Assembly (NCBI GenBank): GCA_036405415.1
Contig: DASWXP010000002.1
Coordinates: forward strand, 125,862 to 189,861
Reading direction: 5' to 3'
DNA: 64,000 nt
Source: Minisyncoccota bacterium
GTDB lineage: Bacteria; Patescibacteriota; Minisyncoccia; Phycocordibacterales; Phycocordibacteraceae
The position numbers and the translations under genes are program-made. The notes below the pieces were generated by a model. It saw only the letters and a program-made list of their open reading frames with translations, had not been told where the DNA came from and did not search any database. This document shows positions 3,283 through 57,215 of the stretch, piece after piece; position 1 is the stretch's first letter, and each line of letters starts with the position of its first letter.

Positions 3283-4053
3283 ATGACCTGGCTCGACAGC
3301 ATCATCCTCGGCGTCATCGAAGGCGTCACCGAGTTCCTTCCTATCTCCTCAACCGGGCACCTTATCCTCGCGAGCGAGCTCTTGGGGCTTGAGCCGTCTA
3401 CCTTCCTCTCCTCGTTCCAGATCGCGATCCAGCTCGGCGCTATCGCAGCGGTGCTCGCGCTCTACTGGAAGCGATTCCTCGATATCCCGTTCCTTACGAA
3501 GCTCTTCGTAGCGTTCCTGCCAACGGGACTCGTCGGGTTCCTGGTGTATCCGTACGTAAAGGGATATCTGCTCGGGAACCTGAACGTAGTTGTAGCCTCA
3601 CTCTTCCTCGGCGGCGTGGCGCTTATCGTGTTTGAGCTCTTCCATAAGGAAAAGCCGGAATCGCTCGAAGGTGCTCGCGAGATTACGTATAAGCAGGCGC
3701 TTCTTGTAGGTGCGTTCCAATCGATCGCAATCATCCCAGGCGTTTCGCGCTCAGCCGCTACTATCGTAGGTGGCCTCCTCATCGGCATGCGTCGCGTCGC
3801 TATCGTCGAGTTCTCCTTCCTCCTTGCCGTGCCAACTATGGTTGCGGCAACCGGATACGATCTTCTGAAATCCGCAGATACGTTTGTGTTCGATCAGTTC
3901 GGCCTGCTTGCGCTCGGGTTCGTGACCGCCTTCCTCGTCGCGCTCCTTTCGATGCGCTTCCTCATCCAGATCGTGCGCAAGCATTCATTCGTACCGTTTG
4001 GCATCTACCGCATAGTGCTTGCGGCCGCGTTCTTCTTCATCGTTCTCATGTAA
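3283..4053 (+). CDS. uppP: Undecaprenyl-diphosphatase
   Basis: UppP/BacA signature EFLPISSTGHL and a polytopic membrane profile. Start placed at ATG 3283 (MTWLDSIILGV), which matches conserved UppP N-termini. TATACT lies 6 nt upstream. Confidence 0.85.
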   Translation: MTWLDSIILGVIEGVTEFLPISSTGHLILASELLGLEPSTFLSSFQIAIQLGAIAAVLALYWKRFLDIPFLTKLFVAFLPTGLVGFLVYPYVKGYLLGNLNVVVASLFLGGVALIVFELFHKEKPESLEGAREITYKQALLVGAFQSIAIIPGVSRSAATIVGGLLIGMRRVAIVEFSFLLAVPTMVAATGYDLLKSADTFVFDQFGLLALGFVTAFLVALLSMRFLIQIVRKHSFVPFGIYRIVLAAAFFFIVLM

Positions 4054-4322
4054 AAGTCACGACCCGCATCGCTGCGGGTCGCTCGTAGTTGTCGCGTTGT
4101 CGGCGCTAGCGCCTGAAGTGCGCGGCTCCGTAACGCCGATCCATCAGGATCGACTGGTGCCGCTGCCTCTTCACCTTCTTCGAATCGCGTTGTTTCGGTC
4201 CGCGTTTGTGGTTCCGGTGCTTGCGGCGGTTCCTGCTTCTCAGACTCATCTGCCCCTCCTCGGGCAAGCTGTTCCAGTCCTGTCTGCTGGAACCGCCATA
4301 AGAACATCAATACAGTGAAAAA

Positions 4323-5072
4323 TCAATAGCGCGGCATCGCTGCCGAGGTGTTCGTGATGCGAATGTCATCGAACGCTCCGTGCTGGAGCGCATCCACAGC
4401 TCCCTGCTTCACGAGCTCAAGGAGCGCGAGGAACGAGACGATAACCTCTACCTTTTCGGTGCTTCCAGCGGAGAACTCCTTGAACGAGAGATTCATGGCG
4501 CGCTGCACCCTTCCGAGAAGCGTATCCATCATCTCCTCGATGGTGACGAGAGGCCGCACGCGGACCTCCGGAAGCTTCTCCTCCGCTTTTTCAAGGGAGA
4601 GAAGCGCGTTCTTAAGCGCCTGAGACAGGTTCTCAAGCGTAAGGTCCCGCGAAGGCGCGAACATGGGTTCTGGAGCGCGCTCTCCGGCCGAGACCATAAC
4701 CATACGCCCGTATACGCGCGAGAGCTCCTCGCGCGCCTCGCGTACCTTCTCATACAGCTGGAGACGGCGTTTAAGGTCGTCCATGTCCTCCTCTTCTTCC
4801 ATCGAGAGCTCGAGCTCTGGGATGAGGGACTTCGACTTTATGAGAAGCAGGGTCGCCGCGACGCCGATGAACTGCGCCGCATCCTCCATCGGAAACGCCT
4901 CATGCCCTCGCACGAACGAGATGTAATCGTCGGTTACCTGCGCGAGTGAGAGCTCGTTAACCGAAAGCTTCCTGCGATCGATAAGGTCGAGCAGCAGGTC
5001 GTACGGGCCCTCGAAGGAACCGGCGCGTATCGTGAACCCCTGGTATTCGGTGATACCGTCCATGATACGCAA
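4323..5072 (-). CDS. scpA: Segregation and condensation protein A
   Basis: 249 aa with an ScpA kleisin-like N-terminus (YQGFTIRAGSFEGPYDLLLDLIDRRKLSVNELSLAQVTDDYISFV). Confidence 0.8.
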   Translation of the reverse strand: MRIMDGITEYQGFTIRAGSFEGPYDLLLDLIDRRKLSVNELSLAQVTDDYISFVRGHEAFPMEDAAQFIGVAATLLLIKSKSLIPELELSMEEEEDMDDLKRRLQLYEKVREAREELSRVYGRMVMVSAGERAPEPMFAPSRDLTLENLSQALKNALLSLEKAEEKLPEVRVRPLVTIEEMMDTLLGRVQRAMNLSFKEFSAGSTEKVEVIVSFLALLELVKQGAVDALQHGAFDDIRITNTSAAMPRY

Positions 5073-8647: not shown

Positions 8648-9898
8648 CTATTTCAAAGCCAGGATAACAGCATCCCGCTTCCCTTTCTTAAGCAGGGCAA
8701 GGCCTCCTAAGAAGTCGCTCTCAGCAAGCTTCTGGTCTACCGAATCAACCGTCTGGCCGTTCAGGCTCACGCCCTTGCCTTCAAGCAGACGTCTCGCGTC
8801 TCCCTTCGAGCTTGCGAGCGAAGAGGTGGCAAGCACATCGAGCACCGAGAGTCCTCCGGCAATATCCTTGCGCAAAACCGGAAGGGACGGCGCCTCCTTG
8901 AGGAGCGTTGCCCGCGCTCCCGCAGAGAGATTTCCGAGCGGCTCCTTTCCAAAGAGGGCTTCCGAGGCCGCTTCGGCATTCTTTGCGCTGTCTGCGCCGT
9001 GCACGATGCCGGTAACCTCGCAGGCGAGCGTCTGCTGCGCCCTACGCGCACCAGGATTCTTTCCGTGCTCCTCCATGAGCGTATCGATCGCAGAGACCTC
9101 GAGGAAGGTGAACATCTTGAGGTACTTCCCGACCATCTCGTCCGGCTGGTTGAGCCAGAACTGGTAGAAGGCGAACGGCGAGGTCTTCTGAGCGTCGAGC
9201 CAAACCGCGTTTCCTTCTGACTTCCCGAACTTCTTGCCGGTTGCGTCCGTTACAAGCGGGGTCGTAAGAGCGAACGCTTCCTTCCCTTCCTTGCGACGGA
9301 TGAGCTCCACGCCGGAGAGAATGTTCGTCCACTGGTCGCTTGCGCCGATCTGAAGGTCGACGCCCTTTTCCCGGTTGAGCACGAGGAAGTCGTATCCCTG
9401 AAGTAAAGAGTATGCGAACTCGGTGTACGAGATCGACTCGTCCGGAGTCTCGAGCCTCCTCTTGATGATGTCGCGCTTCACGAGCTCGTTCACCGTAAAG
9501 TGCTTCCCGATATCCCGGAGGAAGTCCACGAGCTTCACTTTGAGGAGCCAGTCCGCGTTATCGACGACGGTTACCCTCGCCCCCACGATGCGCTGCATCT
9601 GTGCCTTGAGCGCTCTCTTGTTACGCTCTACGATCTTTGTATCTGCCAATACGCGCTCGCCGCTTTCGCGTGGGTCGCCGATCATGCCGGTACCGCCGCC
9701 GACGAGAAGCACGATCTTGTGTCCTGCATCAGCAAGGCGCTTCATGGTGAGGACTACGAGCAGGTTCCCGGCGTGCATGGAGTCTGCGGACGGATCCACG
9801 CCGAGATACACAGTGCGCTTCTTTGAGAGCACCTCATCAATAGGAGCAGATACGTGCTCCACGAGGCCGCGGGCCTTCAGTTCTTCAGCCAGATTCAT
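8648..9898 (-). CDS. tyrS: Tyrosine--tRNA ligase
   Basis: 416 aa. N-terminus has GVDPSADSMHAGNLLVVL (HIGH-type), KFGKSEGN (KMSKS-type) and a C-terminal S4-like domain. TATACT lies 6 nt upstream of the ATG. Confidence 0.9.
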   Translation of the reverse strand: MNLAEELKARGLVEHVSAPIDEVLSKKRTVYLGVDPSADSMHAGNLLVVLTMKRLADAGHKIVLLVGGGTGMIGDPRESGERVLADTKIVERNKRALKAQMQRIVGARVTVVDNADWLLKVKLVDFLRDIGKHFTVNELVKRDIIKRRLETPDESISYTEFAYSLLQGYDFLVLNREKGVDLQIGASDQWTNILSGVELIRRKEGKEAFALTTPLVTDATGKKFGKSEGNAVWLDAQKTSPFAFYQFWLNQPDEMVGKYLKMFTFLEVSAIDTLMEEHGKNPGARRAQQTLACEVTGIVHGADSAKNAEAASEALFGKEPLGNLSAGARATLLKEAPSLPVLRKDIAGGLSVLDVLATSSLASSKGDARRLLEGKGVSLNGQTVDSVDQKLAESDFLGGLALLKKGKRDAVILALK

Positions 9899-11560: not shown

Positions 11561-11736
11561 AGGTACTCTGAGAACATAGGAAACTCGCGTTCAATCGACT
11601 CACCAATCTCTTCCTCGGTCGTGAAGGTGGGAAAATTACGCGACAGGAAAGCATTCCAGTAAGTGTACGCCGTCACAACGAGCACAAGGAGGCACAAAAG
11701 TACGAACGGATCCAGAACTTCCTTAATTCCCTTCAT
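11557..11736 (-). CDS. Small membrane protein (59 aa), hypothetical
   Basis: ATG at 11736 gives MKGIKEVLDPFVLLCLLVLVVTAYTYW... (one TM helix plus an acidic tail). Sits between the SET gene stop (11723) and the HK start (11560) with overlaps at both ends. Confidence 0.4.
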   Translation of the reverse strand: MKGIKEVLDPFVLLCLLVLVVTAYTYWNAFLSRNFPTFTTEEEIGESIEREFPMFSEYL

Positions 11737-12229
11737 GTTTTGATAATACCTCACGCTCGTACACTTTCTGGAAGTACTTCGGGATAAAAGGGAGATACTC
11801 CCGATAGGTCTTTTCAGGAAGCGTTTGGATTGGGCCAATGAACTTGCGGAAAGCTGGCGACTCAGGCTCCTCAGTTTCGAAGCAGTAATCGACATCCTCC
11901 TCTGTGGTTGAATAGTCGATCGTAATCTCCTCCCCGGCCGCAATATCTCTCAAGGCATATAATCTCAACTTTCTCGAACCTTTCAGGCCGGCCGTCGGGG
12001 CGCAGGAGTGGTTAAGGTACTGAAACTCATCGATCGGATCGATCCAAGTATTCTTTCCGATTCCAATCCAATCTCCGTAGCGGTTGCTTTGTCCGTAGAT
12101 GGTCGGTTCGTAATATACCCGGGATCCCCGCAGCTCAGCGATAAACTGGCCACGCTTAAGCGCCTGGCGAGTGAAAACCCCGTAACCGTGTATTGGGCTT
12201 TCTAGTACTGAGAGTAAGGCCTTTTTCAT
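11723..12229 (-). CDS. SET-domain protein (putative protein-lysine methyltransferase)
   Basis: 168 aa with SET signatures GYGVF, YLNHSCAPT (NHSC) and ITIDYS (post-SET Tyr). Confidence 0.75.
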   Translation of the reverse strand: MKKALLSVLESPIHGYGVFTRQALKRGQFIAELRGSRVYYEPTIYGQSNRYGDWIGIGKNTWIDPIDEFQYLNHSCAPTAGLKGSRKLRLYALRDIAAGEEITIDYSTTEEDVDYCFETEEPESPAFRKFIGPIQTLPEKTYREYLPFIPKYFQKVYEREVLSKHEGN

Positions 12230-14557: not shown

Positions 14558-16342
14558 CTACTCCTTGATAAAGCCGCCCGCCTGGATGCTCCAGAGCTTC
14601 TGATAGAGGCCGCCTTGCTCTAGGACGAGCTCGTCATGAGTGCCGTCTGCGACCACCTTGCCCGCCTCGATAACCACGATGCGATCCATGGTCATGATCG
14701 TGGAGAGTCGGTGCGCGATCACGATAACCGTCTTCCCTTCCATGAGCACCTTGAGCGCGTCCTGGATTAGTGCTTCGCTCTCAGAATCGAGCGCAGACGT
14801 CGCCTCGTCGAGGATGAGGATCGGTGCATTCTTAAGTATGGCGCGGGCAATCGCGACGCGCTGGCGCTCGCCTCCTGAAAGCTTCACGCCGCGTTCGCCC
14901 ACATGCGTCTCGTACTTCTCCGGAAGGCTGTCGATGAACTCGTGGCAGTGCGCTTTCTTGGCAGCCTCGATAACCTCCTCGTCGGTCGCGTCCGGCTTGC
15001 CATACCTTATGTTGTCGGCGAGCGAGCGGTGGAAGAGAATCGGCTCCTGGGGAACGAACGAGATGTTATCCCTGAGCGAATCCTGCGTAACGTCACGTAC
15101 GTCCTGGCCATCGATGCGGACGCTCCCTTCCGTGACGTCGTACATCCTGAGGAGAAGTTTTGTGACGGTTGATTTGCCGGCGCCTGACGGCCCCACGAGC
15201 GCAGTCTTCTGTCCTGCGGGTATTGAAAGGTCAAAAGCCTTGAGGACCGCACGTTCACCGGTGAACGCGAAACCAACTTTCTCCATAGTGATCTCTCCGG
15301 CGGTCACGGTAAGCGCACGGGCGTTAGGCGCATCCATAACCGAGTGCGGAGTCTCGAAGATCTCGATCATCTCATGTGCATCGGCGAACGAGCTGAACAA
15401 GCGCCGCATGGAGCTTCCGATGCCCCAGATGCGGTTCACGAGGCCTATGATGTACACCTGAATGAGCACGAAGTCTCCTACGGAAATAAGGCCGCGCTGC
15501 CACAGGAACACCGCGCCAGCCAGAAGCGCCACTTCAATGACAATCGCCATGATGCCTTGCACCGCAAGGAGCCAGGTATCAGCGTTCCAGGAGCGGATCG
15601 TCGCGTCGTACCATTTCTGAAGCGCACTTCTGAGGATGCCACGCTCGTGCGTGCTCGCCGCGAACAGGCTCACGGTCGATTGGTTGCTGATCGAATCGGA
15701 AAGCACGCCGGTCACGTTGCTCTCTTCTTTCGATCGAGCGACACGCAACGGCTGACGCCATCGTGTCATTACTATCTGGATCCATATGAAGAAAAGGGTC
15801 CACGCGAGCACTCCTACACCGAGAAGGAGGTTCCGTTGGGAGAGCACGATGACGACGCCGATGCTGAAGACGGCGGTCGAGAAGAAGCCGAATGTAAAGA
15901 TGTCGATGACCGACTCGAAAGACTGGGCGTAGCGGCTTACGCGCCTCTGCAGGGAACCCGCGAAGTTCTTCGTAAAGAAGTCGTGTGAATGACGGATCAG
16001 ATGCGCGAACGCGCGGTTATAGAGATCTACCATCACCCTCGCTTCGAAATACTGGAGCGAGATCATCTGGACCCTCCTGCCTACCCAGCCCACCAATGCC
16101 ATGCCTGCATAGAGAATGAGGATCAGGAGAAGCGCTCGTACCGCTGCATCCGAAGCATCTCCCGAAGCGATACCGTCGATGAACTGCTTGATGTAAAGCG
16201 GCGAAGCGAGCGCTGCAAGCTCGATGAGAAGGCTTCCGGCAATGATCAGCACGAAAAGCCAAGGATACTTTCTCCCTGCCTTAGCGTAATCACGCACGAC
16301 CGGCCATGCACGGCCGGACTTCTTTTCATCGTCTGCCTTCAT
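14558..16342 (-). CDS. ABC transporter, fused permease/ATP-binding exporter (MsbA-like)
   Basis: 594 aa. Six-TM N-terminal domain, Walker A GPSGAGKST, signature LSGGERQRVAIARA, Walker B ILILDEATSALD. Confidence 0.85.
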   Translation of the reverse strand: MKADDEKKSGRAWPVVRDYAKAGRKYPWLFVLIIAGSLLIELAALASPLYIKQFIDGIASGDASDAAVRALLLILILYAGMALVGWVGRRVQMISLQYFEARVMVDLYNRAFAHLIRHSHDFFTKNFAGSLQRRVSRYAQSFESVIDIFTFGFFSTAVFSIGVVIVLSQRNLLLGVGVLAWTLFFIWIQIVMTRWRQPLRVARSKEESNVTGVLSDSISNQSTVSLFAASTHERGILRSALQKWYDATIRSWNADTWLLAVQGIMAIVIEVALLAGAVFLWQRGLISVGDFVLIQVYIIGLVNRIWGIGSSMRRLFSSFADAHEMIEIFETPHSVMDAPNARALTVTAGEITMEKVGFAFTGERAVLKAFDLSIPAGQKTALVGPSGAGKSTVTKLLLRMYDVTEGSVRIDGQDVRDVTQDSLRDNISFVPQEPILFHRSLADNIRYGKPDATDEEVIEAAKKAHCHEFIDSLPEKYETHVGERGVKLSGGERQRVAIARAILKNAPILILDEATSALDSESEALIQDALKVLMEGKTVIVIAHRLSTIMTMDRIVVIEAGKVVADGTHDELVLEQGGLYQKLWSIQAGGFIKE

Positions 16343-16378: not shown

Positions 16379-16885
16379 TTATCGTGCCGCCACGAACACT
16401 CCGATCAAAGGCGCCACGAACCACCAGAAGAAGAACCGGTCCGGTGCGAACAGCGCGTCCAGGGACGGCGTAAGCGGGATAACGGCCGCGATATTAAGCA
16501 CATGATACCCGAGCGCGAGCACGAACCCTCCCGTCACGAGCGCGAGCACGCCGAGCGTAAGCGGATGGATGCGCATCGAGCCTGAGGTCGAGACCCTGCG
16601 CAGAAGTACGTACGGGAAGAAGGTGAACACGCCGAACAATACGATGCCGCAGACCGCGCGCGTAAGCGCAGTATCCCCTACGAGAAACTGTTCCTTGTAC
16701 GGGAATACCGTAAAGAGCGCGAAGCCCACATAGAGCGCAAGGATGATGGAAATCAGCATCGAGCGCCCGGTGCGAAGCGCGAAGAAGAAGAGGATGCCCG
16801 CGATGATGAGGAGTACGAGGAAATTCCCGATAAAGGAAACGATATCAGCGAAGCCTCCGGTTGCGAGCGAATTGAGCGCGTCCAT
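16379..16885 (-). CDS. Small polytopic membrane protein, possibly CvpA family
   Basis: 168 aa with 4-5 TM helices. Loose resemblance to CvpA N-termini; weak call. Confidence 0.35.
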   Translation of the reverse strand: MDALNSLATGGFADIVSFIGNFLVLLIIAGILFFFALRTGRSMLISIILALYVGFALFTVFPYKEQFLVGDTALTRAVCGIVLFGVFTFFPYVLLRRVSTSGSMRIHPLTLGVLALVTGGFVLALGYHVLNIAAVIPLTPSLDALFAPDRFFFWWFVAPLIGVFVAAR

Positions 16886-16933: not shown

Positions 16934-18007
16934 TTAAAGTCCCTCGCCCTGCAGCTCTTCGATCGCTTTCTTCGCTTTACCTGAGAGCTTCTTCGGAAGC
17001 GTCACGGTAAGCCGGATGAGAAGGTCGCCGGACTGGTTATCTACGGTTACGCCCTTGCCCTTCAAGCGCAGCGTCTGCTGCACTTCCTGCATCGCTGGGA
17101 TCTTCACCTCGAGCTTCGTGCCGTCCACGAGCGTCACGGAAGCCGTAGTGCCAAGGAGCGCGTCCGTAAGCTTCACCGGCATCTGCATGGAGAGGTTCAT
17201 GCCTTCCTTGCGGAATACCGGATGCGGCTTCACGTGCACTTTCACATACAGGTCTCCGGCGCTCCCGTTCTTGACCGCCTCGCCCTTCCCCGGCATGCGG
17301 ATCATCTCGCCATCATCCATGCCTGGAGGAATCACGATCGAAAGCTCCTCTTCGCGCCGCAGCACCCCGTGCCCTGCACAGGCAGCACAGCGTTCTTTCG
17401 GCACCTTGCCGGTCGCGTCACAGGCCGAACACGCTCTCGTGCTTGCGATCTGCCCGAACGGCGTATTGCGCGCTTCCCGAAGGTGCCCCTGCCCGTTGCA
17501 CTGTTTGCAGGTCTCCATCTCAGTCCCGGGCTTTGCGCCTGACCCTTCGCAGGTCTCGCAGGAAGAGACCTTCGTTATGAGCACTGAGCGGGTGCCGCCA
17601 AGGATAGACTCCTTGAACGGGACCTCGATATCAATAGAAATGTCGCGACCGCGCTTCGCGCGCGTCCTGTGCGTGCCTCCGAAAATGTCCCCGAAGCCCT
17701 CAAAGAGGTCGTTTAGGTCGAACTCGACGCCTCCTTGGCCGAACCCAGAGAATTGCGACGGGTCGAATCCGCCGAAGCCTCCTGCGCCTGGCCCGCCGCC
17801 AGCGAAGGTCTGACCGTACGAGTCGTACTCGCGGCGCTTCTTGTCGTCCCCAAGGACGCTGTACGCCTCGGTTATCTCCTTGAATTTCGCCTCATCCCCG
17901 CCCTTGTCCGGATGATGCTTCTGCGCGAGCTTGCGGAAGGCCTTCTTTACGTCGTCCTTCGTCGCCTTCTTGTCGACTCCGAGAATGTCGTAATAGTTCT
18001 TCGCCAT
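16934..18007 (-). CDS. dnaJ: Chaperone DnaJ
   Basis: J domain (YYDILGV... HHPDK), G/F-rich region, four CxxCxGxG zinc-finger repeats and a C-terminal domain. 357 aa. Confidence 0.9.
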   Translation of the reverse strand: MAKNYYDILGVDKKATKDDVKKAFRKLAQKHHPDKGGDEAKFKEITEAYSVLGDDKKRREYDSYGQTFAGGGPGAGGFGGFDPSQFSGFGQGGVEFDLNDLFEGFGDIFGGTHRTRAKRGRDISIDIEVPFKESILGGTRSVLITKVSSCETCEGSGAKPGTEMETCKQCNGQGHLREARNTPFGQIASTRACSACDATGKVPKERCAACAGHGVLRREEELSIVIPPGMDDGEMIRMPGKGEAVKNGSAGDLYVKVHVKPHPVFRKEGMNLSMQMPVKLTDALLGTTASVTLVDGTKLEVKIPAMQEVQQTLRLKGKGVTVDNQSGDLLIRLTVTLPKKLSGKAKKAIEELQGEGL

Positions 18008-18015
18008 AGGAGGAC

Positions 18016-18021
18016 ACTATA
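18016..18021 (-). promoter_or_regulatory. Putative -10 TATAGT 8 nt upstream of the dnaJ ATG (leaderless-type); no SD present
   Basis: Minus strand reads TATAGT-gtcctcct-ATG. A terminator-like hairpin (gggcggctctc...gagggccgcc plus TTTT) lies just upstream. Confidence 0.35.
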
Positions 18022-18070
18022 ACAGAAAAGGCGGCCCTCGAAAGAGAGCCGCCCGTTTCGTCGTCTTGCG

Positions 18071-18697
18071 TTACTCTCCCTGGTACAGGAACCGGAAGCC
18101 GCCTTGGCGCCAGCGATCGCAGACTTCCTGGTTCTGCGGCTGGATTCGCCCGTAGCAGTTCTGGTTGAAGAACCTGCGCTGCTCGCGACAGAAGTCGGTG
18201 TTGTAGTGGCCGATGGCGCTGCGGTTGGCGTTGCAGTGGAAGGACTGGCTGCCATAAGGCGGCGGGTATCCTTGCCTCTGGTCGAGCTGCCGTAGCTGCA
18301 TCGCCGTCGAGGCGTTGATGGGCAGGATCTTCTGGAATCTCAGGAGACCCCCGGTCCGGCCCCATTCGAACTTCCCATCCGCGCAGCCCATTACCGGCCT
18401 GCCGAGGAAGTCCTCCCTCCTGCAGGACGCCAGGTTCGCGGTTTCGACCAGGATCTCGACGAGACTGGTGCGAGACGCGATCGTCGACAGCTGGTATAGA
18501 CTGTTGCTGTCCTGGCAGTAGAGTACGCGCTCGCCTAGGATTGTACGATCACGGCCGACGCCCCCGTCCGGACAGACGTTTGAGATGGTCCGGTCAGGGC
18601 TCTGGTCCTGCGCAGTGGCGAGGTTCGGTGCGACCAGCGTGAGCATGGCCGCCACGATCCCAAGCGCCCAAAGGCGCGAAGTAACGATATGCGACAT
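18071..18697 (-). CDS. Secreted cysteine-rich hypothetical protein (208 aa)
   Basis: Signal peptide MSHIVTSRLWALGIVAAMLTLVAPNLATA-QD, then 8 Cys in the mature region. Own promoter (TATAGAAT at 18746-18753, minus strand). Sits between dnaK and dnaJ. Confidence 0.6.
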   Translation of the reverse strand: MSHIVTSRLWALGIVAAMLTLVAPNLATAQDQSPDRTISNVCPDGGVGRDRTILGERVLYCQDSNSLYQLSTIASRTSLVEILVETANLASCRREDFLGRPVMGCADGKFEWGRTGGLLRFQKILPINASTAMQLRQLDQRQGYPPPYGSQSFHCNANRSAIGHYNTDFCREQRRFFNQNCYGRIQPQNQEVCDRWRQGGFRFLYQGE

Positions 18698-18770
18698 AAA
18701 GAGCTCCGTGGCTGCGTCCCCGAAGGGCCAATTGACGTTAGCTAGATTCTATAGCATAACTTGAGAAAGT

Positions 18771-18801
18771 CAAGAGCCGCAGCGTGGTGCTGCGGCTCTT
18801 G
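18771..18801. terminator. Hairpin caagagccgcagc-gtggt-gctgcggctcttg downstream of dnaK
   Basis: 13-bp perfect stem. A T-rich tract follows on the minus strand. Confidence 0.5.
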
Positions 18802-18814
18802 AATCTAAGGATTT

Positions 18815-20701
18815 TTAGTCTTCTTTTGGCTTCTCTTCGGTAAATTCTGCGTCAGTAGCCGCTCCTTCCTCCTTCGGAGCCTCTGCTGCCTGCTGCTCTT
18901 CCTTCATCATGCTCTCGCCAATCTTCGAGAGCGAGGTCGAGAGCTCCTCGGATGCAGTCTTGATCGCATCTACGCTATCGCCGTCGCGCGCGGTGCGGAG
19001 TGCGGCGATCTTCTCGTTCACCTCCTTCACCACGTCCTCCCCTGCCTTCTCGCCATTCTCCTTCACGGCCTTCTCGGCGGTGTAGATCATCTGCTCTGCG
19101 AGGTTCTTGACCTCGACGAGCTCCTTGCGCTTCTCGTCCTCAGCCTTGTTCGCCTCAGCGTCCGCCTTCATCTTCTCGATGTCGGCATCTGAGAGGCCGG
19201 TTGATCCCTCGATGCGGATGGACTGCTCCTTGCCGGTGGTCTTCTCCTTGGCCTTCACGGTTAGGATGCCGTTGCTGTCGACATCAAACGTAACCTCGAC
19301 CTGCGGCATGCCGCGCGGTGCCGGCGGGATGCCGTCGAGCATGAAGCGTCCGAGCGACTTGTTATCGGAAGCCATCGCGCGCTCGCCCTGCGTGACATGG
19401 ATTTCAACGGATGTCTGGTTGTCTGACGCGGTCGAGAACACCTGGGACCGCGAGGTCGGGACCGCGGTATTGCGCTCGATGAGCTTGGTCGCGACGCCGC
19501 CCATGGTCTCGATCGAGAGCGAGAGCGGGATCACGTCGACGAGAAGGATGTCCTTCACGTCGCCCTGCAGGATACCTGCCTGGATCGCCGCGCCGATAGC
19601 CACCACTTCGTCCGGGTTCACGTCACGATGCGGCTTCTTCCCGAAAAGCTTCTCTACCTCTTCCTGGATCTTCGGCATGCGGGTCTGGCCGCCCACGAGG
19701 ATGACCTCCTCGATATCAGCGGCCTTGAAGCCGGACGCTTCGAGCGCGCGCTTCGTGATATCGATGGAGCGCGCGATGTATTCGTCCGCGAGCGACTCCA
19801 AGGTCGCGCGCGAGAGCTTCACGAGAAGGTGCTGCGGTGTGCCATCGGAACCTACGGTCACGAACGGGATGTTCACCTCGGTCTCAGTTGCGGTAGAAAG
19901 CTCGAGCTTCGCCTTCTCAGCCGCTTCATCGAGGCGCTGAAGCGCGAGGGGATCCTTCGTGATGTCGAGCCCCGATTCCTTCTTGAACTCGTCGGCGAGG
20001 TGACGGACGATCTTCTGGTCGATATCGCGGCCGCCCATGTGGCTGTCACCGTCGGTAGCCTTCACCTCGATAACGTCGTCGCCGACCTCGAGCACCGACA
20101 CGTCGAACGTGCCGCCGCCGAAGTCGAACACGACGATCTGCTGGTCCTTCTTCTTGTTGAAACCATACGCGAGCGCTGCCGCAGTCGGCTCGTTGATGAT
20201 GCGCTTTACGTCGAGTCCTGCGACCTGGCCTGCTGCCTTGGTCGCTGCGCGCTGCGCGTCATCGAAGTACGCAGGCACGGTGATAACCGCCTCGGTGATG
20301 GTCTCGCCGAGCTTCTTCTCCGCGTCAGCCTTGAGCTTTGCGAGGATCATCGCGGACACCTCCTCTGGACGGTAATCCTTCTCGCCGAGATGTACCTGCA
20401 CGCCGCCGTCAGGACCTGCCTTGATCTCGTACGGCACGACGTCCTTGTCCTTCGTTACGACATCATCCTCGAAGCGATGGCCCATGAAGCGCTTGATGCC
20501 GTAGATAGTGTTCTTCGGATTCGTGACGGCCTGGCGCTTCGCGAGCGTGCCTACGAGGCGCTCGCCATTTTTTGCGATCGCGACGACCGATGGCGTAGTG
20601 CGCGCGCCTTCAGCGTTCTCAAGCACGCGCGGCTCGCCCCCCTCCATGATGGCCATGGCGGAGTTGGTAGTACCAAGATCGATACCGAGGATCTTTCCCA
20701 T
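18815..20701 (-). CDS. dnaK: Chaperone DnaK (Hsp70)
   Basis: [14 protein letters not shown]..., DLGGGTFD, and full Hsp70 architecture. The track start is TTG; the ATG is at 20701. Confidence 0.95.
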
Positions 20702-20784
20702 AGTCAAAAGAAGTTAGTGTGTAACTCTATATAAACGCCCACTGATTTCCCTATTTTACGCTTCCCGTTTTCAGCCTTCAAGGC

Positions 20785-21336
20785 CTATCCGGCGAAGCTC
20801 CCGACGCGCACCTTTGCAGGCCGCACCACGGCTTCTCCCGCCATCCAGCCCTGCTCGAGCACGGCGGTAACCGTATCGTCCTTCGCCTGCTCTGCCACCT
20901 CGTCCTGTCCGAGCGCCTCATGGCGCATCGGATCGAACGCTTCTCCAATCGAGCCAAACGGGGCGAGTCCGAGCGAGTTTGCCGCGTCATGCAGCTGCTT
21001 AGCAACCATCTGAAACGATTCCGGGATCTCGCCTGCCGCTTCTGCGCGTGTGAGTGTGTCGAGCACGGTTATGAACGCGCGTGCTGCCTTTATGGAGCCC
21101 TGTGCCTTCGCTTCTGTCTTCTCTTCTTCAAACCGCTTGAGCGCGTTTACGTAATCTGCCTTCGCACGCTGCCAGCCGTCCATGTATTCCTGACGCTCTG
21201 CCTTGCACTGCTCGAGCTCTTTGCGGAGCTTCGCGAGCTTCGTATCAGCACGGGATTCCTGCTCCTCAAGCTCAACTTCGCTCATTCCGTCTTCTTCAGC
21301 GCCATCGCGCTCCAAAACAACATCGTCTTCTTGCAT
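20785..21336 (-). CDS. grpE: Nucleotide exchange factor GrpE
   Basis: 183 aa. Coiled-coil N-terminus plus a GrpE C-terminal domain (VLDTLTRA... FDPMRHEALG). Confidence 0.85.
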   Translation of the reverse strand: MQEDDVVLERDGAEEDGMSEVELEEQESRADTKLAKLRKELEQCKAERQEYMDGWQRAKADYVNALKRFEEEKTEAKAQGSIKAARAFITVLDTLTRAEAAGEIPESFQMVAKQLHDAANSLGLAPFGSIGEAFDPMRHEALGQDEVAEQAKDDTVTAVLEQGWMAGEAVVRPAKVRVGSFAG

Positions 21337-21375: not shown

Positions 21376-21906
21376 TTAGAACAGTCCCCCGAACCAAGCA
21401 GCAATGCTGGCCCAGATCCGAGCAAAGAAGCTCTCCTTTAGAGAAGCGGTAGTGGCCGCCTCAATGGAAGACGTCGCAAAGTTCGTCGCTACTGTTCCTG
21501 GTATAGGCAGCAATGATTTCGCTTTGGGCTCAGCCGTCTGATCTCCTTCATATGCAGTGCAGTATCCCGGTGCCGGATCTCCGGCACATGCCTTGAGCGT
21601 GCAGTACGAATCCCCGTCAGGTCCTCTCCCGCAAGAATTGCACCCGTCAAACCATGCGGTGCAATGTTCAGGCGGCACATATCCTTTTCCTGGGAGTTCT
21701 TGATCAGTGCATTCGCCCTGATGCTTAAACGTGCCGCCTTCTGCTCCGAGCGTGCAGCTATTCCCGTACGTCCTGTATGCGCCTTTCATATCCGTGCCGC
21801 ATACGGGCGCGTATTCCATGGTGCACATGACAGGCGTGCGCGCTTCAGTAAGGAGCGGCACGGATGAAATTACAAGCGCGCCAAGAATAATAGCGAGGTT
21901 CTTCAT
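21376..21906 (-). CDS. Secreted cysteine-rich protein with a Kazal-type inhibitor-like domain and a C-terminal hydrophobic tail
   Basis: Signal peptide MKNLAIILGALVISSVPLLTEA. Segment CTMEYAPVCGTDMKGAYRTYGNSCTLGAEGGTFKHQGEC matches the Kazal consensus (C..PVCG.D..TY.N.C.L....C). A second Cys-rich module follows, and the C-terminus is hydrophobic. Confidence 0.6.
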   Translation of the reverse strand: MKNLAIILGALVISSVPLLTEARTPVMCTMEYAPVCGTDMKGAYRTYGNSCTLGAEGGTFKHQGECTDQELPGKGYVPPEHCTAWFDGCNSCGRGPDGDSYCTLKACAGDPAPGYCTAYEGDQTAEPKAKSLLPIPGTVATNFATSSIEAATTASLKESFFARIWASIAAWFGGLF

Positions 21907-35656: not shown

Positions 35657-36676
35657 TTACCCTATGATACCACCCCCGATAACGCGGTCGTTTCTGTAGA
35701 TAACGAGCGACTGCCCTGCAGCAACCGGCTCAGGAAGCGGCCCCTCGGGAACGAATGCATTTCCTGAAAGCGTACCCTTAATAACGGGTCCGTGGTACCG
35801 GAACTGAGCCTCCACGAGTCCTTCTGCCTCTCCGAACCAGTTCAGCTGCGAAAGCTTGATGCGATCTGGCGGCGACACGCGATCCTTGGATACGACCAGC
35901 TCGTTCTTCTCGATATCCTTCCGAACCACGTACCACGGACCCTGCGAAGCGCCCTCTATCGCTATACGGCTCCCAAGCGTATGGAAGAGCGCGCCATCGT
36001 GCTTTCCGAGCACGTTGCTTTCGGTATCGCGCGCGATTCCCGGTTCCTGCTCGCCGAGCTCCTGGCGCAGGAAATCCTCCACGGAAATGCTCCCGAGGAA
36101 GCAGATGCCCTGACTATCCTTCTTGCGTGCGTTCGGGAGCTTGAAACGCTTCGCAAGCGTACGGGTCCCATCCTTCTTCATGCCTCCGAGCGGCATGAGC
36201 GTCATGGCAAGCGCTTCCTCGGGCACTGCCCAGAGGAAGTAGCTCTGGTCCTTGGCCTCGTCTGTGCCTCGAAGCAGCTTTCCGTCTTCCACGCGCGCAT
36301 AGTGCCCGGTTGCGATATAGTCCGCACCCTTCTCTTTGGCGAAGCGGTAGAACGCGCCGAACTTAACCTCTCGGTTGCACATGATGTCAGGGTTTGGCGT
36401 CCTTCCCGCCTTGTATTCAGCAAGAAGATAGTCGATTACGCCCTGTTTGTACTCCTTCGATGCATCAAGCGTAATGAAGGGAATTTGCAGCCGTGCTGCA
36501 ACACGCATCGCATCCCTGCGATCTTCTGCCCAGGTGCAGAGCATGCCAGGCGGATACCAGCCCTTTATGAATACGCCGATGACGTCTGCGCCTCGTTCCT
36601 TAAGGAGCGCTGCGGTTACGGCAGAATCGACGCCACCGGAAAGTCCTACGAAGATCCTCTTTCCCTTCAGGTTCAT
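35657..36676 (-). CDS. mnmA: tRNA-specific 2-thiouridylase
   Basis: PP-loop SGGVDS at the N-terminus, catalytic Cys region (ICFLGSI), 339 aa. Confidence 0.9.
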   Translation of the reverse strand: MNLKGKRIFVGLSGGVDSAVTAALLKERGADVIGVFIKGWYPPGMLCTWAEDRRDAMRVAARLQIPFITLDASKEYKQGVIDYLLAEYKAGRTPNPDIMCNREVKFGAFYRFAKEKGADYIATGHYARVEDGKLLRGTDEAKDQSYFLWAVPEEALAMTLMPLGGMKKDGTRTLAKRFKLPNARKKDSQGICFLGSISVEDFLRQELGEQEPGIARDTESNVLGKHDGALFHTLGSRIAIEGASQGPWYVVRKDIEKNELVVSKDRVSPPDRIKLSQLNWFGEAEGLVEAQFRYHGPVIKGTLSGNAFVPEGPLPEPVAAGQSLVIYRNDRVIGGGIIG

Positions 36677-36694
36677 GCCTGAAGATATACCACA

Positions 36695-38098
36695 CTACGT
36701 AGGAAGATTGCTTGGTGCCTCGCTCGTCGTGGACTGGATGCGAGGCAGGCTCGGGGTCGTAACCGAGCTCGACGGCACATGATAGAGCGTCGCCATCTCC
36801 TCGACGCTCATGACGTTGTAGTCACCCACATATGGCGGATGGAAGAACGCACGCATGCGGTAGTACAAGAGCACCATGTGCTTCATATGCTCGCTATGAT
36901 GCCCATGCGGATCCTCCCACGGATAGTCGTTGAAATGGTTGTCCCAACGGCCGTCGGCAGGCATGAGCGAGTTCGCGTTCTCCGAGTTGAACGGCTTGAA
37001 GATGTTCACCAGCACGCCGCCCATGGTGCCCTGCGCCACGTCCTTCGGCGCGAGATAGATGCCGCGGATACCCACGTCGAACGCCTGCTTGCCGGTGTTC
37101 TTCTCGATAGCCTCGATGCGCGTCGCCATGGCGCGCGTCGGATTCGGATAGGAAACTGAGGTGCGCTTCACGCCGTTGGCATCCACGTACTCGTTCTCCA
37201 CCTTGTCTTCCTCGCGGAGCTTCTTAATCTCTTCCTTTGCCGCATCCTTCCAGGACGACGGCTTCGAGTCCCATGGCTTCCCCTGGTGCACACGCACCAC
37301 GAACTGGAGCCACAGCTGCTCCTTGGGACCCAAGGATCCCATGATTTCTATCATCTGCGCCAAGGGATCGATCTGCTCTTCTGGCTTCTGCACCTTATCA
37401 AGACCGTACTCTACATACGTCTTCAAAGGATACGGATCCGGCTTCGTCTTTCGGAACTCGAAGGCCGTCATGGTGTACGGCTCATGAGACGGATCAACCA
37501 GACGGCTGTAGTCCATGGCTTCGATAACCTCAACGCCAGGGTACTGCGCGTACAGGTAGCTCTCGAGCGCGCGGCGCCAGCCGGAGCGCAGCCATACGAA
37601 GTAGTGCACGCGGCCGCCGATGGATACGATCTCGTACGAATACCACGGGCGGGCGCGTCCCTGGATGATGCGCTTGTACCAGGTGTTCTCGCCTCCGGCG
37701 ATATGCATGCTCGAGAACACGGTCTCCATCGCAAGCGGCGTGCGCCTCGTGTCGCGAGGCATCTTGATCTCAAGCAGTACGGTCTCCTGCTTCGCGATCC
37801 ACGCGGACTTGTTCGCGTCGACAAACCTCCTGAATCCGAACGTGAACAGGAGCGCCGGGATCCAGAGCGGGGAAAGGAACAGGAGGAACTGGAAGTTCGT
37901 TATGGTCTGACTCGGCGAGAAGAAGAAGAAAGCGACGAGCTCCGCGCCGAACGCAATCAAAAGCGGCTTCAGCTCGACCGAGCTGCCCCCGTCTTCGTGC
38001 GCCTTGTGCATCCACCCTTTAATAAGGTCATGCCCCGGAAGCATGCTTTTGCTGTGTCCGCCTGCTGACATGCGCAAAGTATAGCAACGAAACGACAC
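36695..38098 (-). CDS. Hypothetical membrane-anchored protein (467 aa)
   Basis: N-terminal hydrophobic segments followed by a large soluble domain. No family recognised. Confidence 0.45.
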   Translation of the reverse strand: MSFRCYTLRMSAGGHSKSMLPGHDLIKGWMHKAHEDGGSSVELKPLLIAFGAELVAFFFFSPSQTITNFQFLLFLSPLWIPALLFTFGFRRFVDANKSAWIAKQETVLLEIKMPRDTRRTPLAMETVFSSMHIAGGENTWYKRIIQGRARPWYSYEIVSIGGRVHYFVWLRSGWRRALESYLYAQYPGVEVIEAMDYSRLVDPSHEPYTMTAFEFRKTKPDPYPLKTYVEYGLDKVQKPEEQIDPLAQMIEIMGSLGPKEQLWLQFVVRVHQGKPWDSKPSSWKDAAKEEIKKLREEDKVENEYVDANGVKRTSVSYPNPTRAMATRIEAIEKNTGKQAFDVGIRGIYLAPKDVAQGTMGGVLVNIFKPFNSENANSLMPADGRWDNHFNDYPWEDPHGHHSEHMKHMVLLYYRMRAFFHPPYVGDYNVMSVEEMATLYHVPSSSVTTPSLPRIQSTTSEAPSNLPT

Positions 38099-56222: not shown

Positions 56223-57215
56223 TTAGCGAACGTGAGTACTGTATCGTTTCTTGCCGCTGAGAGCAAGGTCTACGAGGTGGGACAGGAAGTCCGGGAAGGA
56301 CACCCCGATAGCCCCCAGGGACTTCGGGAGGAGGGACTCCGTGGTCATGCCTGGAAGGGTATTCGTCTCGAGGAAATAGATGCCTTTCGGCGTAACCATG
56401 AAGTCGGAACGTGAGTAATGGCGGAGCCCCAACCCCTCATGCATGACCCGTGCCTGGCGCATGAGCTCCTCCTGCACAGTCTTCGCGAACCTGCCCGGCA
56501 CAATCTCGCGAGTCGCGCCTGAGTACTTCGCGCCATATGAGAAGAAGTCTCCTTGCGGCGGGACTATCTCTATAGGCGGGAGCGCGTACAACGATTCCCC
56601 ACGAAGGTGCTCCACGACGCCTGCCGTTGCCTCGGTACCGCGGATCAGTTCCTCTACGAGCACCCCGCCGGCGTCTTCCCCAAGAAGCGCCTCGAGCGCG
56701 TCATGGACCGGTTTGAACCCGCCCACGATAGAGATGCCTACCGACGAACCCCAACGCACCGGCTTCACTACAACCGGCTGATGGAAGGAGCGCACGATCT
56801 CCATAGCAGCAGCCTGCGTATCGCTCCCGTGCTCGACGAAGCGGTAGCGGGGCGTAAGCAGACCGAGCTCCTTCGCCTTCTCCTTCGTAAGCACCTTATG
56901 CATCGCAAGGTACGATGCGAACGAATCGGAACCGGTGTACGGCACCCCATGGCGCTCAAGGAGCTTCTGGACCTCCCCGTCCTCTCCGTATTCGCCATGC
57001 AGGCCGATAACCGCCACATCGATCTGCGGCAGCACGCGCACCGGATCCGTGACCCTTCCGCGCTCATGCCATATGCCATTGCGGTCTATGTAGAGATCGC
57101 GCACCGTAAAGCGGTCCTCGGGAAGGTTCTGGATGATGGCGTGCCCGGTCTTGAGAGACACCTCATGCTCCCGTGAAGGACCGCCTCTAAGAACGCCAAC
57201 AACCGTGCCGCGCAT
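56223..57215 (-). CDS. ddl: D-alanine--D-alanine ligase
   Basis: ATG 57215 (MRGTVVGVLRGGPSREHEVSL...). ATP-grasp motifs. The track start is TTG. Confidence 0.9.
   Translation of the reverse strand: MRGTVVGVLRGGPSREHEVSLKTGHAIIQNLPEDRFTVRDLYIDRNGIWHERGRVTDPVRVLPQIDVAVIGLHGEYGEDGEVQKLLERHGVPYTGSDSFASYLAMHKVLTKEKAKELGLLTPRYRFVEHGSDTQAAAMEIVRSFHQPVVVKPVRWGSSVGISIVGGFKPVHDALEALLGEDAGGVLVEELIRGTEATAGVVEHLRGESLYALPPIEIVPPQGDFFSYGAKYSGATREIVPGRFAKTVQEELMRQARVMHEGLGLRHYSRSDFMVTPKGIYFLETNTLPGMTTESLLPKSLGAIGVSFPDFLSHLVDLALSGKKRYSTHVR

Follow-up and report, generated by a model that had tools for sequence, protein, structure and literature searches.

The canonical heat-shock operon, grpE-dnaK-dnaJ, is under HrcA/CIRCE control. 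In the stretch of DNA analysed here (64,000 nt, hereafter the window), which derives from a Candidatus Paceibacterota MAG, an ORF for a 208-residue, cysteine-rich protein stands between dnaK and dnaJ. An identical protein is annotated as "hypothetical protein VGE53_00905" (622-kb contig). What is this gene, and why does it lie inside a chaperone locus? The original prediction offered co-regulation of a secreted factor with heat shock, or an insertion hotspot. Our analysis leads to a different answer, which we consider probable: the ORF is the cargo of a hypervariable secreted-protein slot between dnaK and dnaJ, exchanged by recombination within one clade of Paceibacterota (Patescibacteria/CPR).

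All sequence features named in the original prediction are present at or near the positions where it had placed them (Table 1). The dnaK terminator hairpin, which it gave as 18771-18801, is a perfect 14-bp inverted repeat that extends one nucleotide further on each side. The separate promoter of the 208-residue protein, with a terminator on either side, the second terminator-like hairpin before dnaJ and the leaderless-type dnaJ promoter were likewise recovered. The gene upstream of grpE encodes a Kazal-like protein as proposed (Pfam Kazal_1, E 9.3e-8, 32.4 bits versus a cutoff of 21), and is kept at the same place in nine related loci and in L147. The true start of dnaK is probably the ATG at 20701.

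Table 1. Coordinates of the slot between dnaK and dnaJ and of its neighbours in the window, in the direction of transcription.
Feature	Position	Strand	Description
Secreted Kazal-like protein	21376..21906	-	Upstream of grpE; context only, outside the slot
grpE	20785..21336	-	Own promoter TTGACT-17-CATAGT, 7 nt before the ATG
dnaK (Hsp70)	18815..20707	-	Upstream conserved flank; ORF and translation, PF00012 on orthologues
dnaK intrinsic-terminator hairpin	18770..18802	-	14-bp stem, 5-nt loop; 100% complementary; dG -28.7 kcal/mol, z -7.8 versus shuffles
Slot-gene promoter	18746..18773	-	-35 TTGACT (18773-18768), 16-nt spacer, -10 TAGAAT (18751-18746)
Leader, ~42 nt	18698..18739	-	AACGTCAATTGG box, hairpin, SD, spacer
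Leader box	18739-18728	-	AACGTCAATTGG
Leader hairpin	18727-18718	-	CCC-UUCG-GGG
SD	18707-18704	-	GGAG
SD-ATG spacer		-	6 nt, pyrimidine-rich
Slot gene (ORF)	18071..18697	-	208 aa, ATG start; 8 Cys: C42, 61, 92, 105, 155, 170, 181, 193
Signal peptide (predicted)	18611..18697	-	Codons 1-29, MSHIVTSRLWALGIVAAMLTLVAPNLATA followed by Q; n, h and c regions; -3/-1 = A/A
Mature protein (predicted)	18074..18610	-	179 aa, family F1; 8 Cys, pI 8.7, 11% Arg
Slot-gene terminator	18029..18054	-	11-bp stem and T-tract; dG -25.2, z -5.0
dnaJ promoter	18016..18024	-	Extended -10 TGtTATAGT, ends 8 nt before the ATG; leaderless geometry
dnaJ	16934..18007	-	Conserved flank downstream of the slot

The slot ORF is a real coding gene under purifying selection. 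Two orthologues, 77% and 80% identical, keep all eight cysteines, and differences by codon position (23/24/63, 29/28/82 and 33/28/79) are dominated by the third position. Measured against these two orthologues, dN/dS is 0.16-0.18 over the full gene and 0.13-0.14 when only the mature part is counted, and it ranges from 0.09 to 0.31 across ten pairwise cargo comparisons within allele types. The ORFs that overlap 18071-18697 in other frames (e.g. 17892..18365) were rejected as artefacts of high GC, since it is at third positions of the annotated frame that substitutions accumulate. The composition of the gene is native: GC content runs through it without a break, and GC3 is 0.82, compared with 0.80 in dnaK. 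Scanning the surrounding 4.1 kb for repeats revealed neither an IS element or integrase nor direct repeats on the two sides beyond chance matches, and a PHROGs search gave zero matches for the protein, which is encoded by a single-ORF unit. Absent repeats, native GC and GC3 and the lack of a PHROGs match rule out insertion by a mobile element, be it an IS, an integrative element or a phage. The same scan found no long repeat pair; variation in the slot covers whole domains and is not site-specific, unlike that expected of a diversity-generating retroelement target.

The encoded protein has the features of a Sec/signal peptidase I signal peptide, in line with the original prediction, as judged heuristically from n, h and c regions, Kyte-Doolittle hydropathy and the A-x-A rule. 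Its n-region carries one basic residue, R8, the Kyte-Doolittle maximum is 2.71 over 10 residues, and the predicted cleavage site is A-T-A before Q. Across a 15-member alignment of its family, here called F1, the -1 alanine (A29) and +1 glutamine (Q30) are invariant. When members of a second family found in the slot, F2, are included, alanine stands at -1 in 21 of 21 sequences, and almost all of them have a small residue at -3. The lipobox [LVI][ASTVI][GAS]C is absent; no cysteine occurs in the c-region and the first mature cysteine is residue 42. A bacterial lipoprotein processed by signal peptidase II is ruled out by the missing lipobox.

Mature proteins of both families have even cysteine counts, with eight in most F1 and all F2 members and six or four in short F1 forms. 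Their pI is mostly ~8-9.5 (range 6.3-9.5) and their Arg content 10-17%. AlphaFold2, run on an 11-sequence alignment, predicted a beta-rich N-terminal core at residues ~36-123 (block pLDDT 62-87), followed by an Arg- and aromatic-rich C-terminal part with four cysteines, where confidence was low. The models of both families are weak, with a mean pLDDT of 59.8 for F1 and 54.9 for F2, and confidence in the F2 model was too low for a fold search. An F1 subfamily of 164 residues lacks one segment that holds both C92 and C105; because the two residues are lost jointly, this deletion suggests that they pair as a disulfide.

Searches of curated collections assigned the slot protein to no known family. 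The best Pfam match of the window protein was DUF6754 (E 0.22, 11 bits versus a cutoff of 27), and the best NCBIfam match (E 0.012, 15.8 bits versus 105) covered the signal peptide region only. A family scan of all 11 F1 members found no shared family, and F2 likewise gave none. PADLOC, PHROGs, PDB sequence-profile and fold searches also returned no match for the slot protein. It lies outside Kazal, Pacifastin and the other curated disulfide-rich domains of Pfam and NCBIfam, so that a positionally conserved gene of no known family is what the domain search left. By sequence comparison, F1 and F2 are two newly documented 8-Cys families.

Where context is available, members of both families lie in one place. 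F1 has very few members: searches over 1.8-5.8 billion proteins, run directly, exhaustively and with profiles, gave about a dozen clusters, locus and metagenome scans added few, and in all there are ~16 distinct proteins in 5.8 billion. Wherever the context of an F1 member can be read, the gene is found between dnaK and dnaJ and on their strand (L001-L012, L016, L017, L020, L021, L049, L100, L117 and L132). F2 is also a secreted 8-Cys family, and all of its members with context occupy the same slot (L013, L019, L025, L026, L038, L063, L130, L141 and L145-L147). On long contigs the neighbourhood matches that of the window, with S9, cupin, Kazal, grpE, dnaK, the slot gene, dnaJ, a 168-aa membrane protein, ABC and lysS in order; in L147 it is identical to the window's, with F2 as the cargo. 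The gene is therefore conserved in place in related genomes. As to an insertion hotspot, the dnaK-dnaJ junction does act as a variable site, but a private or recent insertion is contradicted by the presence of the same family in all relatives found. A DnaJ scan with one genome per species yielded 80 loci. Among more distant relatives (DnaJ ≤58% identical) most junctions measure 3-90 bp; those of closer clades usually span 400-1600 bp, with varied, unrelated genes inside. Sister-clade junctions contain membrane proteins, lipoproteins and small cytosolic proteins.

The two families are not detectably similar in sequence. An hhalign comparison of F1 with F2 aligned the signal peptide only, with a probability of 23%, and a jackhmmer search from the window protein against all ORFs of 92 loci converged on F1 and did not reach F2. 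The secondary-structure patterns in the two AlphaFold2 models differ, both models being of low confidence, and a shared fold is conceivable given how weak they are. Common to both families are the length class, eight cysteines, a basic pI and an Arg/Tyr-rich C-terminus that ends in Cys and then basic residues.

Upstream of the ORF, F1 and F2 loci share one expression cassette. It comprises the terminator hairpin with compensatory stem changes, TTGACTTT, a TATGGTATATTAT-type -10, a AACGTCAAT box and a tetraloop hairpin, and continues with ACGGAG, a pyrimidine-rich spacer before the ATG and a signal peptide ending in A-x-A before Q. The 3' arm and T-tract of the dnaK terminator run into the -35 box of the slot gene. 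In relatives the terminator stem covaries (AAGAGCCGCAGC, AATAGCCACGAC or AAGGACCGCAGC, with matching 3' arms), and TTGACTTT, unchanged in all 10 loci aligned, occurs in each of the 20 listed cassette copies. The promoter agrees with the consensus at 10 of 12 positions; in 6 kb, five promoter-like sites were found versus 1.4 expected. A metagenome scan by promoter pattern recovered true cassettes in 5 of 52 cases, the rest being mostly unrelated consensus promoters, many on gut phage-like contigs. The -35 box is covered by an inverted repeat, CTTGAC...GTCAAG, for which an operator was considered and rejected, as the repeat occurs only in the window and L001 and is not conserved.

The leader hairpin covaries. 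Among 17 distinct sequences, pair 3-12 is GC in six, UA in six and CG in five and is never unpaired, and the covariation score is 0.45 versus 0.107 in shuffles (0/500). These values come from explicit pair counting on loop-anchored 14-nt segments, anchored by hand. RNAalifold on a MAFFT alignment of the leader predicted no structure, the hairpin arms being misaligned there. Taken alone, the window copy of the hairpin is not unusually stable (z 0.37). It lies upstream of the SD and not over it. The AACGTCAATTGG box is not found above chance frequency elsewhere in the 64 kb, and an Rfam scan of 6 kb (E≤10) gave no family match for the leader and only sub-threshold noise on the terminator.

The downstream end of the slot is also conserved. 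A hairpin with a T-run follows the slot gene at the same place in 12 of 12 aligned loci, and GTATAGT stands 8-9 nt before the dnaJ ATG in 11 of 12. In a crude survey of 60 ORFs of the window, an SD-like motif was found in only ~8. In many, a TGGTATAMT-type -10 box lies 6-9 nt upstream of the ATG, a pattern to which grpE and dnaJ conform. The genome thus appears mostly leaderless, with per-gene promoters as the norm. The original prediction had stressed the interruption of a normally compact operon; the division into separate units stands, but it is less remarkable here because per-gene promoters with leaderless mRNAs appear normal. The slot gene is the unusual one, with its near-consensus promoter, structured leader of ~42 nt and canonical SD, which is rare in this genome. 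These promoter, leader and SD features suggest that it is highly expressed.

The cargo departs sharply from its surroundings. DnaK is 87-97% and DnaJ 77-98% identical in amino acid sequence within the clade. On the DnaJ tree, a single-gene NJ tree, F1 and F2 loci form one clade and are intermixed inside it. L063, an F2 locus, has a DnaJ that is 97-98% identical to those of the F1 loci L005 and L011, whose own cargo proteins are 50% identical while their DnaJ proteins are 98% identical. L016 carries a 127-aa cargo form with four cysteines, and its DnaJ is 95-96% identical to those of L005, L011 and L063. Comparison of L005 with L007, L063 and L016 gave 81-99% identity for the cupin, GrpE, DnaK, DnaJ, 168-aa membrane, ABC and LysS proteins; for the cargo, identity is 78% with L007, undetectable with L063 and 33% over part of the length with L016. 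At the nucleotide level, L005 and L063 are 85-95% identical in the dnaK and dnaJ flanks and 30-50% identical across the slot. The stretch of low identity reaches from the 3' tail of dnaK to a point ~30 nt short of the dnaJ ATG. Divergence covers the whole interval from the dnaK tail to dnaJ, and no sharp breakpoint of recombination was seen.

The genealogy of the cargo also conflicts with that of its flanks. Three-taxon site patterns in dnaJ group L005 with L011 (154, versus 32 for L005=L007 and 34 for L007=L011), as do those at the 3' end of dnaK (64, versus 39 and 37). In the cargo, L005 groups with L007 (132, versus 35 for L005=L011 and 43 for L007=L011). Synonymous differences (pS) are discordant with the flanks in both directions: between L005 and L011 pS is 0.32 in dnaJ and 0.69 in the cargo, and between L005 and L007 it is 0.74 and 0.48, NG86 dS being near saturation in several pairs. 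In the sublineage formed by the window, L001 and L002, all three carry the same cargo allele type, and there we infer a replacement solely from lower synonymous divergence (window-L001 pS 0.63 in dnaJ and 0.42 in the cargo). The locus thus displays both marks of a replacement locus, conserved flanks around a divergent centre and an incongruent genealogy. All genomes compared are MAGs or metagenome contigs, and assembly chimeras might conceivably arise where a locus is variable; however, the same pattern recurs on many independent contigs.

An explanation of the locus has to account for the anatomy of the slot, its conserved position and cassette, its unrelated cargo families, its outlier divergence and its incongruent genealogies. 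Vertical hyper-divergence, in which F1 and F2 are a single orthologous resident gene under fast diversifying or relaxed evolution, never exchanged between lineages, would account for the shared cassette, signal-peptide end, length class, eight cysteines, basic pI and Arg/Tyr-rich C-terminus, and for the lack of sharp breakpoints. The Kazal neighbour, too, evolves faster than the housekeeping genes. However, unrelated cargo is found next to DnaJ proteins that are 97-98% identical and within flanking DNA of ~90% identity, and a dN/dS of 0.1-0.3 within allele types indicates more constraint than would allow similarity to vanish over that distance. The intermixing of F1 and F2 on the DnaJ tree and the conflict of cargo genealogy and pS with both flanks, in both directions, also make this explanation unlikely. 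These comparisons point to discrete functional alleles exchanged by recombination, which would fit better than unbroken vertical descent. The small, basic, disulfide-rich product, predicted to be exported and hypervariable with discrete allele families, could alternatively be an antagonistic effector, a bacteriocin- or toxin-like small disulfide protein directed at competitors or the host, with an arms race driving allele diversity. The strong promoter and SD suggest high output. Yet the unit is monocistronic, with no adjacent immunity gene or dedicated exporter, and PADLOC, PHROGs, Pfam toxin families and the PDB hold no match, so we rate an effector as quite unlikely. A partner or immunity role was considered for the downstream 168-aa membrane protein and rejected because its conservation is independent of slot content: it is kept whatever the cargo, also in genomes without one.

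The strict conservation of the dnaK-dnaJ position over ~25 independent loci might instead reflect a chaperone partner, a secreted factor whose location follows from regulation or function shared with the heat-shock genes. The conserved pyrimidine-rich spacer between SD and ATG could pair weakly with GGAG, in the manner of an RNA thermometer. This pairing (GGAG/CUUC(C)) is predicted in some copies, but amounts to at most 4 bp including G-U pairs and cannot form in the window copy. The position, moreover, is not specific evidence of coupling because the whole neighbourhood is syntenic in the clade, and dnaK-dnaJ junctions are compact in more distant relatives. The cargo can be replaced by an unrelated family, and the membrane proteins, lipoproteins and small cytosolic proteins of sister clades occupy the same junction. 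Regulation argues in the same direction: a search for CIRCE (TTAGCACTC-N9-GAGTGCTAA) with up to three mismatches gave 0 matches in the whole 64-kb window, and the slot gene carries a sigma-70-type promoter of its own, with strong terminators before and after it. The co-regulation with heat shock put forward in the original prediction finds no support here. Joint action of cargo and chaperones is not apparent, and we regard a partnership between them as very unlikely.

We therefore return to the recombination-exchanged slot as the probable explanation. The slot is a self-contained expression and export cassette, made up of the overlap of dnaK terminator and -35 box, the -10, the leader, the SD, the signal peptide and its own terminator, after which dnaJ restarts with the geometry of a leaderless transcript. 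The product is predicted to leave the cell through Sec, to be cut by signal peptidase I and to fold outside into a small basic protein with four disulfides. Its mature part, far more variable than the surroundings, comes in at least two families (F1 and F2) without detectable similarity, each with deeply divergent alleles, and each allele type is held under purifying selection. Because the genealogies are incongruent, we infer that homologous recombination carries alleles from one lineage to another, the crossovers probably falling in dnaK and dnaJ, the highly conserved genes on either side. The weakest step, drawn from the evolutionary pattern alone, is that the protein is probably abundant and engaged in an extracellular interaction under diversifying selection. 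It might attach to or recognise host cells, or be something that phages or host defences target. It is possible, though we hold it only tentatively, that an episymbiotic CPR clade keeps a fixed, strong "socket" in its chaperone locus, into which structurally unrelated disulfide-rich proteins are plugged through recombination in dnaK and dnaJ. Under frequency-dependent selection, the cargo would then determine host range or surface recognition, or serve as a decoy against phages or host defence.

An attached life on host cells is assumed for CPR/Patescibacteria, yet very few of their interaction proteins are known. With its consensus-like promoter and predicted export, the slot locus may supply a candidate. 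The slot gene is the divergence outlier among about ten syntenic genes and is easily located between the conserved dnaK and dnaJ. As a general principle, very conserved housekeeping genes can act as recombination anchors for a variable gene. For this lineage, the locus further documents a leader with conserved structure and a gene organisation in which leaderless transcripts apparently prevail.

How does the slot compare with known systems? Replacement islands for surface structures include the pneumococcal capsule loci between dexB and aliA and the enterobacterial O-antigen loci between galF and gnd. Like these, the slot has conserved housekeeping flanks, a non-homologous or deeply divergent centre, an incongruent genealogy and a predicted extracellular product. 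Unlike them, it is one protein gene of ~0.6 kb, not a biosynthetic cluster, and it lies inside a chaperone locus; its promoter, leader and signal peptide are conserved and only the mature part is swapped. Compared with the canonical heat-shock operon, the order grpE-dnaK-...-dnaJ on one strand is the same, but here there is no CIRCE, the genes have their own promoters, a terminator follows dnaK and an extra gene is present. Kazal-type proteins (PF00050) are likewise small, secreted and disulfide-rich, as the slot protein is predicted to be, but cysteine spacing and length differ and there is no Kazal match. Among CPR, local hypervariability has been described in a Gracilibacterium (BD1-5) gene whose product is predicted to be extracellular and is read by the authors as attachment-related; there, nucleotide hypervariation within a population affects a PTD repeat array and the amino-acid sequence is conserved (PMC6851277). 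The slot resembles that case in being a hypervariable CPR gene with a predicted extracellular product; it differs in that whole, non-repetitive mature domains vary between species-level lineages. A literature search found no description of such a slot for secreted proteins in the dnaK-dnaJ interval. It is of a kind already known, the replacement island with conserved flanks; new here are the single secreted-protein gene, the conserved socket, the dnaK-dnaJ site, the occurrence in CPR and the two undescribed 8-Cys families.

The slot gene, which encodes the predicted secreted eight-cysteine protein between dnaK and dnaJ, differs from dnaJ in its synonymous differences (pS). Values were lower for the slot gene than for dnaJ in several pairs, both between the window and the related dnaK–dnaJ locus L001 (0.42 vs 0.63) and among the related loci L005, L007, L009 and L010 (L005–L007, 0.48 vs 0.74). 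This is contrary to the expectation for a faster-evolving protein, and from the sequence comparison we read the low values as recent allele sharing. In the leader of the slot gene, the spacer between the Shine–Dalgarno (SD) motif and ATG (18698..18707) is pyrimidine-rich, with the consensus TCCTTCC, and is kept at equivalent positions in about 25 loci. A spacer of this type could pair weakly with GGAG.

Across the whole window, the SD motif is absent upstream of most genes, and a TGGTATAMT-like −10 box is found in its place, 6–9 nt before the ATG. The scarcity of SD motifs together with the proximity of the −10 box to the ATG suggests that the window genes are mainly leaderless, with one promoter per gene.

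At least 10 related loci retain the Kazal-like gene upstream of grpE. The product of this gene carries a signal peptide at the start and a hydrophobic tail at the C-terminus, and has 50–83% identity between loci, evolving faster than the adjoining housekeeping genes. On the 3′ side of dnaJ, the gene for a 168-aa membrane protein, which had no match in a Pfam search, is kept next to dnaJ in 60 of the related loci, independent of slot content. The SET-domain-like protein has a 175-aa orthologue in L001, in the same neighborhood, for which PF00856 is recorded. The RHS-repeat/YD-shell protein of L005 is a candidate polymorphic toxin.

Features of the chaperone neighborhood and of related loci
Feature	Location	Strand	Remarks
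Kazal-like secreted protein (predicted)	window 21376..21906	−	Kazal_1 match; weaker Pacifastin-like match
Multi-pass membrane protein, 168 aa	window 16379..16885	−	directly after dnaJ; −10 box near ATG
SET-domain-like protein, 168 aa	window 11723..12229	−	PF00856 on L001 orthologue
Example gene	window 8648..9898	−	−10 box near ATG
Example gene	window 14558..16342	−	−10 box near ATG
Example gene	window 35657..36676	−	−10 box near ATG
Example gene	window 36695..38071	−	−10 box near ATG
Example gene	window 56223..57215	−	−10 box near ATG
CYTH-domain gene	L001 758..1321		grpE–dnaK junction
137-aa ORF	L005 4937..5350; also L016		Kazal gene–grpE junction
Additional segment	L020 about 4040..4380		dnaK–cassette junction
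RHS-repeat/YD-shell protein, >1267 aa	L005 13749..16582		directly downstream of lysS
Ala/Pro-rich membrane-anchored proteins	L051, L056		dnaK–dnaJ gap
Lipoproteins	L031, L056		dnaK–dnaJ gap
Small proteins, possibly winged-helix-like	L033, L044		dnaK–dnaJ gap

Extra genes were also found at junctions of the chaperone locus other than the dnaK–dnaJ slot (L001, L005, L016 and L020). In sister clades, the dnaK–dnaJ gap itself contains unrelated genes (L031, L033, L044, L048, L051, L055, L056 and L064), which often have the same layout as the cassette preceding the slot gene, namely a terminator overlapping TTGAC, a leader and an SD motif.
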